Shown here: positions 24,956-30,348 of the stretch, in pieces | Layout: each line of letters begins with the position of its first letter | Position numbering within the stretch: the stretch's first letter is position 1 | DNA from: an uncultured bacterium | GTDB taxonomy: Bacteria; Margulisbacteria; WOR-1; CAVSGV01 | Reading direction: 5' to 3' | NCBI GenBank assembly: GCA_963699255.1 | Contig: OY969425.1 | Coordinates: forward strand, 1,738,856 to 1,770,855 | Length of the DNA stretch: 32,000 nucleotides | The notes under the pieces: model-generated | What the model saw: only the letters and a program-made list of their open reading frames with translations | What the model was told of the DNA's origin: nothing | Database searches by the model: none | Made by a program: the position numbers and the translations under genes

Positions 24956-26239
24956 TCAAAACCTTTTATATAGCCCCGAAGCTACCATCCCGGTTTTGCT
25001 GTTAAGCACGGTGTTCATTATTCCCGCGCGCTCCACGGTGAATTCTCCGAAGCGGTCATTTATGTCATCTATGGCCCTCATGACCTTTTTTCTGTTCTCC
25101 TTTGATTCAAATATGCTTATCTGGTCCAGGTTGTGGCGCAGGCCCGAGAGGGTGACGCCCACGAAGCGCGCGCCGTCCATCTTGCCCAGTTCGCGGTCAA
25201 GTATTGTCTCGGCTTCCTTGAAAATGTCGTAGCCGTCATCGATGTATTCCGGCAGCTTTTTCTGCCTGCCCCAGAAGTTGAATTCCCCCCCGACACTCCC
25301 GACACTGCGGTCGGGACAGGTTCGGTCGGGGCAAGCGATCCCGATCGTCAGATGCACGATATTGCCCTGATAATTATCCCTTCTCAGCCTCCTGCCCACC
25401 TGTTCGCTTAATCGCAGGAGATAGCCCTTGATCTCATTCATGTCCCTTGTGAATTTCGGCAAAGTGTATGAGTGTCCCATCGACTTGGCATCTGACTCGT
25501 GCCAGTGGGGAAGGACAGGAGAGTCGTCTTTCCCTTGTCCCATATGCCAAAGGTGTTCCCCGCATACGACCCCGAAGCGCATGACCAGCCTGTCGCGGGG
25601 ATACCGGTTCAGCTGGCCTATTGTGTGGACACCCAATTCGGCAAGATGGGACTCAAGTTTTCTGCCAATCCCGCAGAGCTTGGCTACGGGAACGTCTTTT
25701 ATCTTCTCCGGAATATCCTCCGGACGCAGGATTATCAATGCATCCGGTTTTTTAAGCTCGCCGGCAAGTTTAGCCATCAGCTTATTCGGGCCTATCCCTA
25801 TGTTGCAGGTAAGATTAAATTTCTCCCTTATCCATTTTTTAATATTCTGGGCTATTACGATCTCCCCGCATCTTGCATCTCGCGTCTCCCATCTCTCTTT
25901 TGTGTCCGTCACATCGATCCATGCTTCATCTATCGAGAATATCTCCACGAGGTCGGAATAAGTTGTCAGGTGCTTCATTATGGCTTTTGAGGTGGAGATG
26001 TATTTCGGCATGTCGCCTACTACTATTATCAGTTCCGGGCAGATCTTTTTGGCTTCCCAGGTGGACATGGCGTTCTTTATTCCGCGGGCTTTGGCTTCGT
26101 AGCTTGCGGCCGCGACGACGGAGGTCTTCTTTATCCCGCCGCCCACCGCTATCGGCTTTCCCCGAAGGGCGGGATTCGCCGCCTGCTCGACGCTGGCGAA
26201 GAAGGCGTTCATATCTATATGCAAGATAGTTCGGTTCAT
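24956..26239 (-). CDS. dinB: DNA polymerase IV (Y-family)
   Basis: MNRTILHIDMNAFFASVEQAANPALRGKPIAVGG, SIDEAWIDVT and little-finger region. 427 aa. Confidence 0.92.
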   Translation of the reverse strand: MNRTILHIDMNAFFASVEQAANPALRGKPIAVGGGIKKTSVVAAASYEAKARGIKNAMSTWEAKKICPELIIVVGDMPKYISTSKAIMKHLTTYSDLVEIFSIDEAWIDVTDTKERWETRDARCGEIVIAQNIKKWIREKFNLTCNIGIGPNKLMAKLAGELKKPDALIILRPEDIPEKIKDVPVAKLCGIGRKLESHLAELGVHTIGQLNRYPRDRLVMRFGVVCGEHLWHMGQGKDDSPVLPHWHESDAKSMGHSYTLPKFTRDMNEIKGYLLRLSEQVGRRLRRDNYQGNIVHLTIGIACPDRTCPDRSVGSVGGEFNFWGRQKKLPEYIDDGYDIFKEAETILDRELGKMDGARFVGVTLSGLRHNLDQISIFESKENRKKVMRAIDDINDRFGEFTVERAGIMNTVLNSKTGMVASGLYKRF

Positions 26240-26487
26240 ATCGATATGCAGGTCTTATTGATCTTCCAGATCAGCCTTTTCAGGTTCAGCGATAATTCAT
26301 AAGTATTCGTGTCGTCCGAAACCGAGAAGAGCATCAGCTTTTCTATGCCGTCGTGGTCCTCCCACTGGTAATTCACCGTCTTGATGTCGTACTTCCGGTT
26401 GTCATAGTAGAACCATTTGGGAAGGATGTGTCCGCCCTGGAAGACAGCGCCGACTTTTATGATCTTATCTATGTTAGTTGGTTCCAT
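26236..26487 (-). CDS. Hypothetical 83-aa protein translationally coupled to dinB
   Basis: ATGA stop/start overlap with dinB at 26236-26239. AAGG SD 7 nt upstream. Beta-strand-rich sequence with no motif I can name. Confidence 0.65.
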   Translation of the reverse strand: MEPTNIDKIIKVGAVFQGGHILPKWFYYDNRKYDIKTVNYQWEDHDGIEKLMLFSVSDDTNTYELSLNLKRLIWKINKTCISI

Positions 26488-26501
26488 GGTTTAACCTTGC
26501 A

Positions 26502-26623
26502 GTATATCGGAGTATCAGGGTATCAGTAGGAAGAGTATCAGAAGATCGGGATATCAGGATGGTTTTACCTGATGTTCTGATGCTCTGATAACCTGCCTAC
26601 TGATCTTCTGATGTCCTGATATG
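26502..26623. repeat. Mirrored word arrays: six (T/G)ATC(A/G)G words on the left arm, six CTGAT words on the right arm
   Basis: Left words at 26505, 26513, 26521, 26536, 26544, 26552. Right CTGAT at 26569, 26577, 26585, 26600, 26608, 26616. Spacings 8/8/15/8/8 on both arms, symmetric about ~26563. Central stem ATCAGG (26553-58) / CCTGAT (26568-73). Confidence 0.85.
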
Positions 26624-26652
26624 CTTCTTAAGCGTTCGAATAAGATTCTTCG

Positions 26653-27234
26653 TTAAAACTTTCTAAAAAGGCCTTTAACTCTACCCTGTATAGCGACGTC
26701 CTTAACGTATATCGGCTTCATTGAGCTGTTGGCAGGCTCGAGCCGGATGCGGGTCTTCTCGCGGTACATGCGCTTGAGCGTCGCGGCTGTGCCGTCCACG
26801 AGAGCCACCACGACCTCGCCGTCGTCGGCGGTATCGGTTTTTTCTATGACGATGAAGTCGCCGCTGACTATGTGGTCTTCTATCATGGAATTGCCCCTTA
26901 CCTGGAGGACGTAGCAGGGCTTTTTGGATACGAGGGTCCTGGGGACCTCTATTTCTTCCTGCTGCTCCATCACTTCTATGGGCATGCCTGCGGCGATGAA
27001 CCCAAAGAAGGGAAGGGTCACTGTGGCTTTAAGGCCGGGTATCCTTAAAGCACGTGACCCTTTCTCCCTTTCAATGAGCCCTTGTTCTTCGAGTGAGTCC
27101 AGGTATTTCTGGCCGGCGCGGGGGGAGGAGAAGCCGAATTGCTTGCATACTTCCCTGATGCTCGGCGCGAACCCTTTTTCGATGATGTGGTCTTTGAGGA
27201 ACTCGAGGATCTGTTTTTGCGTATCTAATGTCAT
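26653..27234 (-). CDS. lexA: LexA repressor
   Basis: Winged-helix N-terminus (IREVCKQFGFSSPRAGQKYLDSLEEQGLIERE), Ala-Gly cleavage site in FIAAGMPIE, catalytic Ser in RGNSM and Lys in LKRM. Confidence 0.92.
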   Translation of the reverse strand: MTLDTQKQILEFLKDHIIEKGFAPSIREVCKQFGFSSPRAGQKYLDSLEEQGLIEREKGSRALRIPGLKATVTLPFFGFIAAGMPIEVMEQQEEIEVPRTLVSKKPCYVLQVRGNSMIEDHIVSGDFIVIEKTDTADDGEVVVALVDGTAATLKRMYREKTRIRLEPANSSMKPIYVKDVAIQGRVKGLFRKF

Positions 27235-27291
27235 TGTCTTTTCCCCCTTGTTTTGCCTCTGATCTCTGGTCTCAGATCTCTTATCTCGTCT
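27235..27291 (-). repeat. Heptamer array in the lexA 5' leader (minus strand: gacGAGA taaGAGA tctGAGA ccaGAGA tcaGAGG caaaaca aggggga aaagaca ATG)
   Basis: Read directly. Eight in-phase heptamers (56 nt, 27290 to 27235) end exactly at the lexA ATG. Same GAGA-type unit as 15418-15480. Confidence 0.75.
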
Positions 27292-27293
27292 TC

Positions 27294-27311
27294 GGTATAC
27301 AAGTGTATACC
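27294..27311. promoter_or_regulatory. Candidate LexA operator GGTATACAAGTGTATACC (7-bp arms, 4-nt spacer)
   Basis: Perfect palindrome 60-77 nt upstream of the lexA ATG. A TTGACA -35 hexamer (minus strand, 27324-27329) lies 12 nt upstream, so the palindrome covers the -10 region. The geometry matches GAAC-N4-GTTC / GTAC-N4-GTAC type SOS boxes. Confidence 0.55.
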
Positions 27312-27345
27312 ATATCGGGAATCTGTCAAGGGGGAATTTAAAGGA

Positions 27346-28557
27346 TTATGAGGGAAGATGAAAAGCAAGAACGGCCAGCTTAATTTCCCTATTATTATCT
27401 CCGATTAAATGAAAAGTATAATTGAACCAGGATTCACTTTCTTTATTATTAAGTTTGATATAACAGTCGTGTTTTGGAGTTGTTTCTTCAATAGATTTTA
27501 GAACTGAAGAAAATTCCTTATTTCTCACAAATAATATCAGTGCTGTCTTAGAATCACGCCAAGTTAAATACCCTAATAGTTGTGTTATTCCTTCGAGATA
27601 GGCTTTTGACCCTTCCCAAAACTTGCATTCTGCGACAAAGATGTTTGAATCTTGATAACGAATTAAAATATCGGTTTTCCCGGATTTATTGAATGTTTCC
27701 CCCGTTATCGAACTGTCTTTTATGCGGGGCTCTAAATGGACCAATATTTGATCTCGGAGGGCCTCCTCATCTTTGTTAAGATAAGTTGAAGGATAACGCT
27801 CAAACGATTTCCCCATAATATTAATTGCATGCAGTATTTCATCGTAGGTTGATTGGTCGATAGAGTATTCTTGAACGCCACTCCTAATGGCGGGCTTATT
27901 AACGGTAATCTTTTTAATAATATGTGGGATTGGCACTGTATAGCTCTTTGTGCTATTTGTCTTAACCCCTCCGAGAGCGGCAAGGGTTTTATTCTTATTG
28001 AGGATTTTTTGTTTAATCGCTTTAAATATTCCGCCAGCATTTGCCTTAAGCTTAGAATTGTAATCTTGAACATTCTTTGTTAGATGTCCGAGTTGTTCAT
28101 TTAATTTATTTATATTGTTTTGTGCTTCAGCTTTAATTTGGTCGGGCTCATCTGAAAATATTTGGATTTCAAAGCAAATACGATTCCCCCTGATTTCTAA
28201 TGGCATGGTCCACAAGAGACGCGGATTAGGAATGTAATGTATTAAATCGACATTCCCGCTATAAGGCATACTATATACATATACTGAACGAGGATATTTT
28301 TTGCCCGGATAAACGTTAAAATTAAAAGGAAAGTATTCTGCTGGAATCATTTTTTCATAAGTAGAAACTTCAAAGCTTTCGAAATCTATGGTAGGTAAGT
28401 CGATACTAAAATCATCAGCTAGATAACCAATGAAATCCTCTTCGTTGACGTTTAGAATATAATCTTCCGATTCTTGGCTGATCCTAGATAGTATTCTTTG
28501 ATCATTTCCCAGAAAATATTGTTGTATGTCTTCTCCTGCAAATGCTTTGAAGGTCAT
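27346..28557 (-). CDS. Hypothetical 403-aa protein with C-terminal PD-(D/E)XK (restriction-endonuclease-like) motif; A+T-rich
   Basis: Clean ORF. The C-terminal third reads EEALRDQILVHLE...GKTDILIRYQDSNIFVAECKFWEG (helix Glu, then D-x14-E-x-K). N-terminal ~270 aa unrecognised, with a central coiled-coil-like stretch. TATATAAT and an AAGG SD lie upstream. Confidence 0.7.
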   Translation of the reverse strand: MTFKAFAGEDIQQYFLGNDQRILSRISQESEDYILNVNEEDFIGYLADDFSIDLPTIDFESFEVSTYEKMIPAEYFPFNFNVYPGKKYPRSVYVYSMPYSGNVDLIHYIPNPRLLWTMPLEIRGNRICFEIQIFSDEPDQIKAEAQNNINKLNEQLGHLTKNVQDYNSKLKANAGGIFKAIKQKILNKNKTLAALGGVKTNSTKSYTVPIPHIIKKITVNKPAIRSGVQEYSIDQSTYDEILHAINIMGKSFERYPSTYLNKDEEALRDQILVHLEPRIKDSSITGETFNKSGKTDILIRYQDSNIFVAECKFWEGSKAYLEGITQLLGYLTWRDSKTALILFVRNKEFSSVLKSIEETTPKHDCYIKLNNKESESWFNYTFHLIGDNNREIKLAVLAFHLPS

Positions 28558-28878: not shown

Positions 28879-29514
28879 ATGAATAAATTAGCTAAGGTAA
28901 GCAGCATCAAATCATTAATATATGTAATAAGGGGCCAAAAAGTTATGCTGGATTTTGATCTGGGACGACTTTATCAGGTCCCTGTCAAAAGACTAAATGA
29001 ACAGGTAAAAAGGAATATATCCCGCTTCCCGGCGGACTTCATGTTGCAGCTTACTCAGGAAGAGACAGAGAATTTGCGGTGCCAATTTGGTACCACAAAT
29101 TACTTAAGAGGACGAGGAAACTTGAAGTCACAAATTGTGACTTCAAGTTCAAGGTCGCAAAATGCGACCTTGAAGCGGGGAGGAAACTTAAAGTATCTGC
29201 CATATGCTTTTACCCGCAACGGCGTTAACATGCTGGCGGCGGTCTTGAGGTCCGAAATAGCTATTCAGCGGTCGATATTTATAATGCGAGCCTTTTCCGC
29301 CCTTGAGGAAGCTATCGGCAGGCGAAAAAATAAGATCCTTTCAAGCCCGGAGGCCATCAGAGAACTTTCGATCCATTCAAAAGCCATAATGCGGCTTTTT
29401 CAAGAGGGCAGGATAAAGGATGCGAGGATATCCAGAATCGAAGATTCTGCAGAAAGAGATCACGAAGCTTATCCAGAAGATAATTATCACTTCAATCGAA
29501 AAAGATTGATATAA
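28879..29514 (+). CDS. ORF6N-domain (KilA-N-related) DNA-binding protein
   Basis: IYVIRGQKVMLDFDLGRLYQVPVKRLNEQVKRNISRFPADFMLQLTQEE...YLPYAFTRNGVNMLAAVLRSEIAIQRSIFIMRAF matches the remembered ORF6N consensus. AAGGAGG SD. Confidence 0.85.
   Translation: MNKLAKVSSIKSLIYVIRGQKVMLDFDLGRLYQVPVKRLNEQVKRNISRFPADFMLQLTQEETENLRCQFGTTNYLRGRGNLKSQIVTSSSRSQNATLKRGGNLKYLPYAFTRNGVNMLAAVLRSEIAIQRSIFIMRAFSALEEAIGRRKNKILSSPEAIRELSIHSKAIMRLFQEGRIKDARISRIEDSAERDHEAYPEDNYHFNRKRLI
29078..29174 (+). repeat. Three tandem palindromes inside the ORF6N coding sequence
   Basis: 29078-29094 GGTGCCAA-t-TTGGTACC (one G.T). 29121-29147 CTTGAAGTCACAA-a-TTGTGACTTCAAG (perfect 13-bp arms). 29148-29174 TTCAAGGTCGCA-aaa-TGCGACCTTGAA (perfect 12-bp arms). 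They encode RCQFGT, LKSQIVTS and RSQNATL. Confidence 0.9.
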
Positions 29515-29525
29515 CAAGGAAAAGT

Positions 29526-29552
29526 GAGGATATCACAAATTGTGATATCCTC
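29526..29552. promoter_or_regulatory. Perfect palindrome GAGGATATCACAA-a-TTGTGATATCCTC, 12 nt after the ORF6N stop
   Basis: 13-bp arms. Shares the 13-mer core TCACAAATTGTGA with the coding palindrome at 29128-29140. No U-run follows, so it is not a classical terminator. Confidence 0.6.
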
Positions 29553-29571: not shown

Positions 29572-29609
29572 ATAAAAAAAGGCTCCCTCCTTATGCAGAA
29601 GGGAGCCTT
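29572..29609 (-). terminator. Rho-independent terminator of the cysteine-rich gene pair
   Basis: AAGGCTCCCT (29579-88) pairs with AGGGAGCCTT (29600-09). On the minus strand the hairpin is followed by TTTTTTT (complement of 29574-29580). Confidence 0.75.
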
Positions 29610-29627: not shown

Positions 29628-29897
29628 CTACTTCTTGCAGCAGTCCTTTACCGCACAAGTTGCGGCTTTAGAACCCGTAGGGCACTGTTTACTGCAATTC
29701 TTTGCGCATGCATTTTTGCATGACTTGGCCTTGCAGCAGCAGTCCTTCGAGCCCTTGCACGGGGCAGGGCAGCAGCACTCGTGGGACGCGATACAGCATT
29801 CGCTGTCGTACTTCGAAGCCGCCATAGCCGCGAGCGGAACGCTCATCGTACCCAGGAACATGAACAGAGCCAATACAGTAACTATCTTCTTAAACAT
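29628..29897 (-). CDS. Exported cysteine/lysine-rich small protein (89 aa; metallothionein-like composition)
   Basis: GGAGG SD 8 nt upstream. Sec-type signal MFKKIVTVLALFMFLGTMSVPLAAMA/AS. The mature ~60 aa contain 16 Cys in CC, CCC and C-x3-C runs with many Lys. A terminator follows. Confidence 0.75.
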   Translation of the reverse strand: MFKKIVTVLALFMFLGTMSVPLAAMAASKYDSECCIASHECCCPAPCKGSKDCCCKAKSCKNACAKNCSKQCPTGSKAATCAVKDCCKK

Positions 29898-29959: not shown

Positions 29960-30316
29960 TCAGACGAAATCCTTGCGGGAGACGAATTGCCTTGTGAACT
30001 TGCACTCGTTCAGCTTTGACATCAACCGGGGATCTTTAAAACATACCTCGCGGTCCTGGTGGACCGTTACCTTAACGGCCGAAATGGCCGGGATGCTTGT
30101 CGAGTCGGAAATAGAGACAGGGTCTGTTTGACCGGGATTTGCCGATGCGATAGCACTTATATTACCCGCGGACTTAAGGCAGCAGCATTCGCAGGCGGGA
30201 TCCTGTGAATGGCATCCGGAATTGTTTGAACAGAATGCGGGGCTGCAGCAAACAAGGCCATTCATGGAAACGGCCAGAACGAGAATGAGTAAACAGATCG
30301 ATTTGTTCTTCACCAT
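29960..30316 (-). CDS. Exported cysteine-rich protein (118 aa from the ATG at 30316)
   Basis: MVKNKSICLLILVLAVSMNG signal-like N-terminus, then VCCSPAFCSNNSGCHSQDPACECCC, sharing the CC...ECCC pattern with the downstream gene. TGTGATATAAT lies 7 nt upstream of this ATG. The listed start at 30343 adds a non-signal-like MFKCDIIYV. Confidence 0.6.
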   Translation of the reverse strand: MVKNKSICLLILVLAVSMNGLVCCSPAFCSNNSGCHSQDPACECCCLKSAGNISAIASANPGQTDPVSISDSTSIPAISAVKVTVHQDREVCFKDPRLMSKLNECKFTRQFVSRKDFV

Positions 30317-30323
30317 AACGTAT

Positions 30324-30334
30324 ATTATATCACA
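30324..30334 (-). promoter_or_regulatory. TGTGATATAAT extended -10-like element, 7 nt upstream of the 30316 ATG
   Basis: Minus strand reads agTGTGATATAATatacgttATG, the identical 11-mer to the one upstream of tldD. No SD. Confidence 0.4.
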
Positions 30335-30348
30335 CTTGAACACTGATT

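Follow-up and report, generated by a model that had tools for sequence, protein, structure and literature searches.

The subject of this report is a gene for a 211-aa protein with an ORF6N domain, together with four palindromes (P1 to P4) in and just behind it, found within a stretch of 32,000 nt (the window, i.e. the whole of the DNA that was analysed) from contig OY969425.1 of an uncultured bacterium of the Margulisbacteria lineage WOR-1 (assembly GCA_963699255.1, positions 1,738,856 to 1,770,855, forward strand). The source genome is a single contig of 1.77 Mb with seven ORF6N paralogues. An earlier interpretation made from the letters alone (the sequence-only reading) had described three palindromes within the coding sequence and one after the stop codon, and all four were recovered, at positions within 1–7 nt of those it gave (Table 1). 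The centre of P1 is at the position canonical for the family, at an offset of 39 nt from the FPxxFxF anchor, and its inner 8 bp are the site that codes for RCQFGT; P2 and P3 overlap by 2 nt.

Table 1. Features of the ORF6N locus, in window positions
Feature	Position	Strand	Remarks
Divergent gene, candidate defence family PDC-S54	27346..28557	-	PADLOC E=2.4e-128
ORF6N-domain gene, 211 aa	28879..29514	+	Pfam PF10543 E=5.4e-31; PADLOC PDC-S05 E=3.8e-49
Codons of predicted recognition helix, residues 36-45	28984..29013	+	AlphaFold2 and co-variation with site bases
Class-determining residue E41, codon GAA	28999-29001	+	
P1	29071..29101	.	Centre 29086; 13/15 pairs; G.T at ±5, C.A at ±9; inner TGCCAA, R class
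15-nt direct repeat bracketing P2 and P3	29114-29128 and 29180-29194	+	14/15 identical
P2	29119..29149	.	Centre 29134; 15 perfect pairs round one centre base; inner TCACAA, Q class
P3	29148..29174	.	Centre 29161; 12 perfect pairs, 3-nt centre; inner TCGCAA, E class
P4	29526..29552	.	Centre 29539; 13 perfect pairs; begins 12 nt 3' of stop codon; Q class
Intrinsic terminator hairpin of convergent Cys-rich gene	29579..29609	-	13-pair stem, then TTTTT; between Cys-rich gene and P4

The window protein matches PF10543 at 107.2 bits (cut-off 27.8), with residues 13–122 aligned to profile positions 2–86; since 110 residues are matched to an 86-position profile, an excess of 24 aa, its ORF6N domain holds an insert. 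Two further PDC-S05 profiles of PADLOC also matched (E=1.2e-44 and 6e-31), with the matches lying mainly at the N-terminal part of the longest profile, and paralogue A covers a 177-position PDC-S05 profile end to end. An AlphaFold2 model built on an 80-sequence alignment (mean predicted local distance difference test, pLDDT, of 81.5) has, in order, two strands, a helix at 25–32, a turn, a helix at 36–45 (VKRLNEQVKR), a strand, a helix at 60–75, a low-confidence loop, a strand at 109–111 and long C-terminal helices at 126–196. Residues 82–100 have a pLDDT below 50, and the peptides of P2 (NLKSQIVTSS) and P3 fall in this loop, which is predicted to be disordered; these extra peptides seem to be merely tolerated by the protein.

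Comparable palindromes were found at the other paralogues. Six of the seven carry a long perfect palindrome (12–15 bp arms) at one domain position, although the arm sequences, and even the peptides, differ; the seventh, C_952, has an imperfect one with 8 of 9 pairs, and an additional non-coding palindrome lies beside the gene in three of the seven. Of 58 palindromes in the genome that score ≥10, 14 have the core CA[AT]N[AT]TG and 12 of these 14 are at the seven ORF6N genes, so the ORF6N palindromes are not dispersed mobile elements in the manner of repetitive extragenic palindromic (REP) sequences, Rickettsia palindromic elements (RPE) or miniature inverted-repeat transposable elements. A second, unrelated palindrome family, TCTCCCCCTTA-N-TAAGGGGGAGA and CCCCTCTCC...GGAGAGGGG, accounts for ∼25–30 of the 58 strong palindromes in this genome (G000), with examples, all outside the window, at C1:67512-67534, 181068-181092 and 899379-899413.

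Family-wide comparisons were performed on three samples: 98 non-redundant ORF6N genes from 80 genomes of many phyla and from viral contigs, 61 ORF6N genes from metagenomes, and 62 ORF6N genes from 30 related genomes. ORF6N genes are unusually abundant in this lineage: 30 of 31 related genomes have them, with as many as 10 copies in small genomes of 1–2 Mb, often clustered. Copies per gene were counted in the first two samples combined (159 non-redundant genes), and at least one palindrome was found in 149 of them: a single copy in 118 genes, two copies in 25, three in 4 and four in 2; the other 10 genes had none. The sequence-only reading, which had proposed such a count, supposed that an ORF6N protein carries one motif and regarded the triplication as peculiar to the window gene. 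That supposition is wrong: a single copy is the commonest state, but 31 of the 159 genes have two to four copies, and with at least three internal copies in 6 of the 159, triplication represents the upper tail of the distribution, rare but not unique. The position of the palindrome within the family is fixed, with the first centre 39 nt past the FPxxFxF anchor in 105 of 149 genes and the centre on codon position 1 in 116 of 119 sites. Pairing reaches 83–99% over ±2 to ±13, drops to 44% at ±14/15 and is at background (23%) at ±16; the element is thus 27 bp long with a sharp edge, and its family consensus is T-T-T-G-A-G-G-T-C-R-C-A-A-W-T-T-G-Y-G-A-C-C-T-C-A-A-A.

We regard it as close to certain that this 27-bp element is selected as DNA, not as peptide or RNA. 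When the motif region of the 98 genes was recoded synonymously, the best palindrome score averaged 5.0, against an observed median of 12, with p≤0.005 in 75 of the 98 genes; as the recoding drew on the codon usage of the motif region itself, this null is conservative. Furthermore, synonymous bases in the motif predict residues three codons away. The Ser codon TCA predicts a following Val (51 of 52 cases) and TCG a following Ala (41 of 42), AGG is paired with ACC (55 cases) and AAG with ACT (10 cases), and Leu goes with Ser when written TTG (53 cases) and with Leu when written TTA (18 cases). Such compensatory pairing is what the sequence-only reading had proposed to look for in a DNA-level comparison of homologues, and its claim that palindromy is kept while the sequence changes, through selection on the nucleic acid, is borne out by the recoding test, by these distant links and by the co-variation with a protein helix described below. 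Position ±4 holds only 0.42 bits of information, yet it is paired in 99% of sites. In one subfamily, which includes paralogue D_1544 and a G007 relative, the palindrome centre falls on codon position 2, so that the same element yields another peptide; in paralogue D (G000:C1:1543950-1543974, and L004) the other frame reads EVVAICDHL.

The centre of the element is under selection as well. In peptide-defined motifs the central Gln codon is CAA rather than its synonym at a ratio of 188:5, compared with 486:488 elsewhere in the same genes, and symmetry runs through the very centre in 91 of 119 sites. The fixed base of this codon would lie in the loop of a hairpin, so a symmetric duplex fits better than stem stability. 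Internal mismatches comprised 8 G.T, 22 A.C and 26 others, and no enrichment of G.T was detected at any individual palindrome position.

To relate the sites to the proteins, mutual information was calculated between the columns of the ORF6N domain (motif columns left out) and the site bases. Base −4 co-varies with residues 41 (z=28.8), 38 (z=17.6) and 42 (z=12.6), and base −7 with residue 37 (z=11.6). These four residues (K37, R38, E41 and Q42 in the window protein) lie on one face of helix 36–45, and no other domain column exceeds z=5.5; that only helix columns co-vary with the site argues against plain shared ancestry as the cause. In these alignments residue 41 predicts the site bases at ±4/5: Q41 goes with TCACAA (Q class, 31/34 genes), E41 with TCGCAA (E class, 29/30), R41 with TGCCAA (R class, 7/8), K41 with TTCCAA (3/3), and the combination Q41 and Q42 with TTGCAA (2/2). 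The residue-to-base pairings agree with the common preferences of Gln for A, Glu for C and Arg or Lys for G. The rule was followed in 52 of 57 out-of-sample metagenome genes and in 61 of 62 genes from the related genomes, and a search that began from the site sequence found Q41 in 12/12 genic matches. Close relatives of differing class, 61–86% identical outside the helix and the motif, were also compared in 32 disjoint pairs, of which 30 follow the rule on both sides.

By this rule, the E41 of the window protein makes P3 the predicted cognate site, and we consider it fairly likely that P3 is cognate and that P1, P2 and P4 are of other classes. The three palindromes inside the gene would accordingly differ because they belong to three specificity classes. 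P1 is an R-class site, apparently decaying, and P2 and P4 are intact Q-class sites that fit a Q41 paralogue at 1.27 Mb rather than the window protein. The sequence-only reading had offered P2 and P4 as candidate autoregulatory operators; being of the class that the rule assigns to Q41, with the window protein's E41 matching P3, they are probably not operators of its own. Co-resident paralogues cover each of these classes: E in A, D and the window gene, Q in the gene at 1.27 Mb (genome positions 1270571-1271137), whose identity to the window gene (57–60%) is the highest among the paralogues, and R in the gene at 0.95 Mb. Paralogue B is of the Q41 and Q42 class, and its rare TTGCA-type site recurs just past the stop codon of gene A. 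Paralogue G (G000:C1:676488-676850) is without the N-terminal helix-turn-helix half, yet it has kept a perfect 27-bp Q-class palindrome.

In L277, a near-orthologue whose genome belongs to the same family, the helix is identical apart from R41. This gene carries an intact R-class first site and a Q-class second site, with no E-class site. Compared with L277, a synonymous GGC to GGT change in the window gene breaks the R-class site at the class-determining pair ±5, and 10 extra codons carry P3, so that the pair looks like a specificity switch with site turnover, in either direction. Both genes retain the Q-class second site although it is cognate to neither, which hints at service to another protein. 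Consistent with such cross-talk, almost all non-cognate sites in 8 genomes are of a class represented in the genome that carries them; since common classes occur nearly everywhere and intragenomic recombination predicts the same pattern, this result is only suggestive. The reading frame of L277 itself (G001:C2) ends behind the domain, with the C-terminal part encoded in a different frame, which points to either a frameshifted pseudogene or an assembly error.

The 15-nt direct repeat around P2 and P3 may be the trace of a duplication or insertion that added sites. A clean 30-nt insertion of P2 relative to paralogue E was considered and dropped, as the alignment difference is 16 aa, not 10. P4 shares its inner 25 nt exactly with the cognate palindrome inside a Q41 ORF6N gene of the related genome G013. 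P4 was rejected as the remnant of a decayed ORF6N gene: the family hidden Markov model does not score its flank (−2.3 bits) above other frames, and the DNA likeness to the G013 gene ends 8 nt past the palindrome (score 58, against a mean of 53 and a maximum of 66 for shuffled flanks).

The core palindrome also occurs beside ORF6N genes, within 200 bp upstream in 14 of 148 (in 10 of the 14 at 25–71 nt before the start codon) and within 200 bp downstream in 5 of 148, and these extragenic copies include both cognate and non-cognate classes. In front of paralogue D, an R-class palindrome ends 13 nt before the start codon, beside the ribosome-binding site, and a Q-class one lies ∼173 nt upstream. 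Exact 19-mers were found in 24 viral contigs for the E class and 42 for the Q class, compared with 1 for a control palindrome in which the ±6 pair was swapped. Approximately 3 of the 24 E-class and 13 of the 42 Q-class matches are within ORF6N-like genes. Thus, the palindrome also lives alone in phages, often within a terminator-like hairpin. A T-rich foot was present on at least one strand in 26 of 39 such orphans versus 17% in the background, a count inflated by related phages. PF10543 had no match anywhere in 10 of 10 orphan-bearing phage records tested, two of which are rated complete. Arrays of orphan sites in phage genomes were looked for and rejected, with one site per record in the five records checked. 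One viral contig (L339, 10834-12106) has a Q-class ORF6N gene with an E-class palindrome ∼380 nt past its end, the mirror image of the layout in the window.

Based on these results, we assign a probability of roughly 0.6 to the following reading: the palindromes are 27-bp two-fold symmetric duplex sites of the ORF6N family, bound by an ORF6N dimer, with feedback on the gene as the probable outcome. The binding step taken by itself, i.e. that the palindrome is the binding site of the ORF6N helix-turn-helix, is quite likely. A symmetric protein-binding site, one of the options that the sequence-only reading had listed, is the interpretation best suited to the helix co-variation and the fixed central CAA, from which binding is inferred. 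In this scheme the recognition helix 36–45 would enter two successive major grooves and contact bases ±4, ±5 and ±7, with residue 41 setting the site class; across the dyad, the contacted bases ±4/5 and ±7 would be separated by approximately one turn of the DNA, as is usual for dimers of helix-turn-helix proteins. Bound protein would then probably feed back on the gene, either as a roadblock or through looping between P2 and P4. As an alternative outcome, binding could neutralise the protein or mark its target, as aba does for BstA (see below).

Several findings weigh against this reading. Five of the 57 metagenome genes break the residue-41 rule, although in two of the five the cognate site is the first copy. 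A sign test of independent pairs on the family tree found only 2 pairs on supported branches, too few for significance, so the independence of the rule rests on the close-pair count and on the helix-only co-variation. No solved homologue of the window protein was found by sequence search, and Foldseek against the PDB returned nothing at E≤0.001 beyond weak winged-helix and MerR-like resemblances; the term "recognition helix" therefore rests on the model and the co-variation. Non-cognate sites make up ∼40% of the extra copies and need a second assumption, e.g. paralogue binding or paralogue recombination. Simple base readout fails to account for the outer arms (±8 to 13), whose symmetry is perfect although their sequence varies among sites attributed to a single protein; template switching that homogenises the arms may contribute, as may the recognition of an extruded structure. 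Lastly, most phage orphans are terminator-like, and a hairpin may have a role in some settings.

Other explanations were weighed against binding with feedback. That the palindromes are a by-product of the peptide motif (R/K)SQxVTS, which is conserved and part of the Pfam profile, has a probability of practically nil, as it is refuted by the recoding null and by the links between synonymous bases and distant residues; the same DNA is, moreover, kept in a different reading frame and in non-coding copies. Hairpins in the mRNA, acting as RNase III or other processing sites, translation pauses or terminators, were a further suggestion of the sequence-only reading. The transcript does fold strongly (−53 kcal/mol over the 121-nt palindrome block, z=−8.4; z=−7 to −8.6 versus shuffles for single-strand folds of P2, P3 and P4), and the terminator-like phage orphans point the same way. 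P4 has no T-run on the ORF6N strand, and on the minus strand a weak T-rich foot, ACTTTTCCTT, stands behind the stronger minus-strand terminator at 29609-29579. The T-runs of P4 and of the site after paralogue A are both on the strand antisense to the ORF6N gene, and these two sites could also help to stop convergent transcription. We nevertheless regard hairpins as an improbable and disfavoured account of the family, given that G.U pairs are not enriched, that the would-be loop base −1 and the very centre are under selection, that the copies outside genes are located in front of promoters or start codons, and that the site bases co-vary with a protein helix; in addition, an Rfam search gave nothing above threshold (the RsaE match scored 25.8 versus 79 bits). 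Only marginally less improbable is a functionless symmetry generated by intrastrand template switching at quasi-palindromes, with the peptide loop tolerating the outcome. It would suit outer arms that are symmetric but variable even among sites near one gene, the great rarity of one-sided palindrome intermediates, and extra sites that code for a disordered loop, but it leaves the fixed position (105/149 genes), the sharp 27-bp limit with its invariant core, and the match to helix residue 41 unexplained; template switching could also operate in addition to selection. Recombination between P2 and P4, by which the 405-bp 3' half of the gene would be inverted or deleted, is very improbable. The 13-mer that the sequence-only reading had noticed in both is real, near-self-complementary and identical at 29128-29140 and 29533-29545, 405 bp apart, with 0.02 such matches expected in window shuffles; family base frequencies, however, give a chance of ∼0.2 of the same 13 bases, so this identity is weak evidence of a special pairing. 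The core common to the paralogues is a possible crossover point and a direct repeat brackets P2 and P3, but no recombinase gene was found in the annotated neighbours, inversion would give a truncated product as read from the sequence, and frequent exchange would scramble the pairing of helix and site.

A further explanation shares the binding step with the preferred reading and differs only in the effect of binding. The cognate DNA would act as a password that switches off or diverts a defence protein, so that the chromosome and incoming elements with the right palindrome are spared, and a multi-class array (here R, Q and E, with another Q behind the stop codon) would confer immunity to several resident ORF6N proteins. 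The precedent is BstA, a defence protein whose N-terminus holds a KilA-N-like DNA-binding domain and whose homologue-specific DNA element aba overlaps its own gene (PMC8585504); variant BstA proteins have distinct cognate aba elements, and binding of BstA to aba is likewise only inferred in that study. The window protein matches PDC-S05 and its gene adjoins a PDC-S54 gene, and a representative of PDC-S05 protected E. coli against T7, T5 and T4, with T7 and T5 plating ∼1000-fold lower (preprint, bioRxiv 10.1101/2024.09.26.614923). The excess of exact 19-mers in viral contigs over the control, mostly outside ORF6N genes, and the phage records that carry orphans without PF10543 would also be expected of passwords. 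On the other hand, the PDC-S05 protein tested had a RhuM domain and may differ from the 211-aa window protein, aba is not palindromic and lies at the 5' end of bstA, the phage records have just one orphan site each, and 26 of the 39 orphans resemble plain terminators. We therefore consider this explanation possible but doubtful. A wider proposal, which we put forward only tentatively, is that of a combinatorial address or password system, in which ORF6N proteins are matched to their 27-bp palindromes by a one-residue code and which includes docking sites for paralogues and phage orphans as passwords or decoys. Each ORF6N protein would have its own site inside its gene, P1, P2 and P4 would dock co-resident paralogues, and phages without ORF6N genes would carry single orphan sites, often in terminators, against ORF6N-type defence. 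Specificity would evolve by site duplication, change of residue 41 and decay of the old site, and the window gene and L277 (E41 versus R41) appear to be such a switch caught midway.

We found no published description of the palindrome in the literature on ORF6N, and the nearest system is BstA-aba (PMC8585504). The two are alike in having a short DNA element in the protein's own gene and variant proteins with their own cognate elements. The aba element is 63 bp long with terminal direct CCCGCC repeats, and consists of 29 promoter-proximal bp and the first 34 bp of the gene (PMC8585504). BstA does not belong to PF10543, and the ORF6N sites are 27-bp palindromes in mid-domain, a different architecture. 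Bacteriophage lambda offers another parallel: the O protein has tandem inverted-repeat binding sites (the ori-lambda iterons) inside gene O, and the sites and the N-terminal domain differ together among related phages. Both systems thus place several inverted-repeat sites in tandem within the binder's own coding sequence. Lambda O is, however, a replication initiator that works next to an AT-rich unwinding region, whereas the seven ORF6N paralogues are spread over a 1.77-Mb chromosome, most family members are single-site, and nothing suggests an origin; profile searches placed the window protein in no initiator family, and no search was aimed at an AT-rich element.

Sites in cis inside open reading frames are also known from lacO2 in lacZ, galOI in galE and parS in spo0J/parB, where they serve in looping, as a roadblock or in loading; in the case of parS, the gene that holds the site also encodes its binder. 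Each of these is an isolated case confined to one operon, whereas the ORF6N site is family-wide, keeps a fixed position in different phyla and in viruses, obeys a readable residue-to-base rule and occurs in arrays of several classes. Rickettsia palindromic elements and the REP and bacterial interspersed mosaic elements include palindromes that can be inserted in frame into genes and translated into tolerated loops, with extra copies outside genes; those elements are dispersed in many unrelated genes and spacers, whereas the ORF6N palindromes are at one fixed domain position. New here are the class assignment of the sites of the window gene, the near-isogenic E41/R41 pair, the sharp 27-bp limit and the count of phage orphans relative to a control.

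ORF6N genes are very common, also in many phages, and are counted as candidate defence genes. A cognate site in the coding sequence, combined with the residue-to-base rule (Q/A, E/G, R/GC, K/TC), would provide a testable handle on ORF6N binding, and the classes would represent a natural set of orthogonal protein-site pairs. Annotators should be aware that the conserved ORF6N "protein motif" is largely a translated DNA element. Together with the precedent of BstA-aba, the phage orphans point to a possible general mechanism of self/non-self distinction in phage defence.

The minus strand of window 24956-28557 holds the divergent PDC-S54 gene and, beyond it, lexA (S24 peptidase and LexA DNA-binding domain) and a gene for a Y-family polymerase. 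On the minus strand, at 29628-29897 and 29960-30343, two genes that converge on the ORF6N gene encode small Cys-rich proteins whose N-termini are signal-like; neither had a match in a Pfam search.

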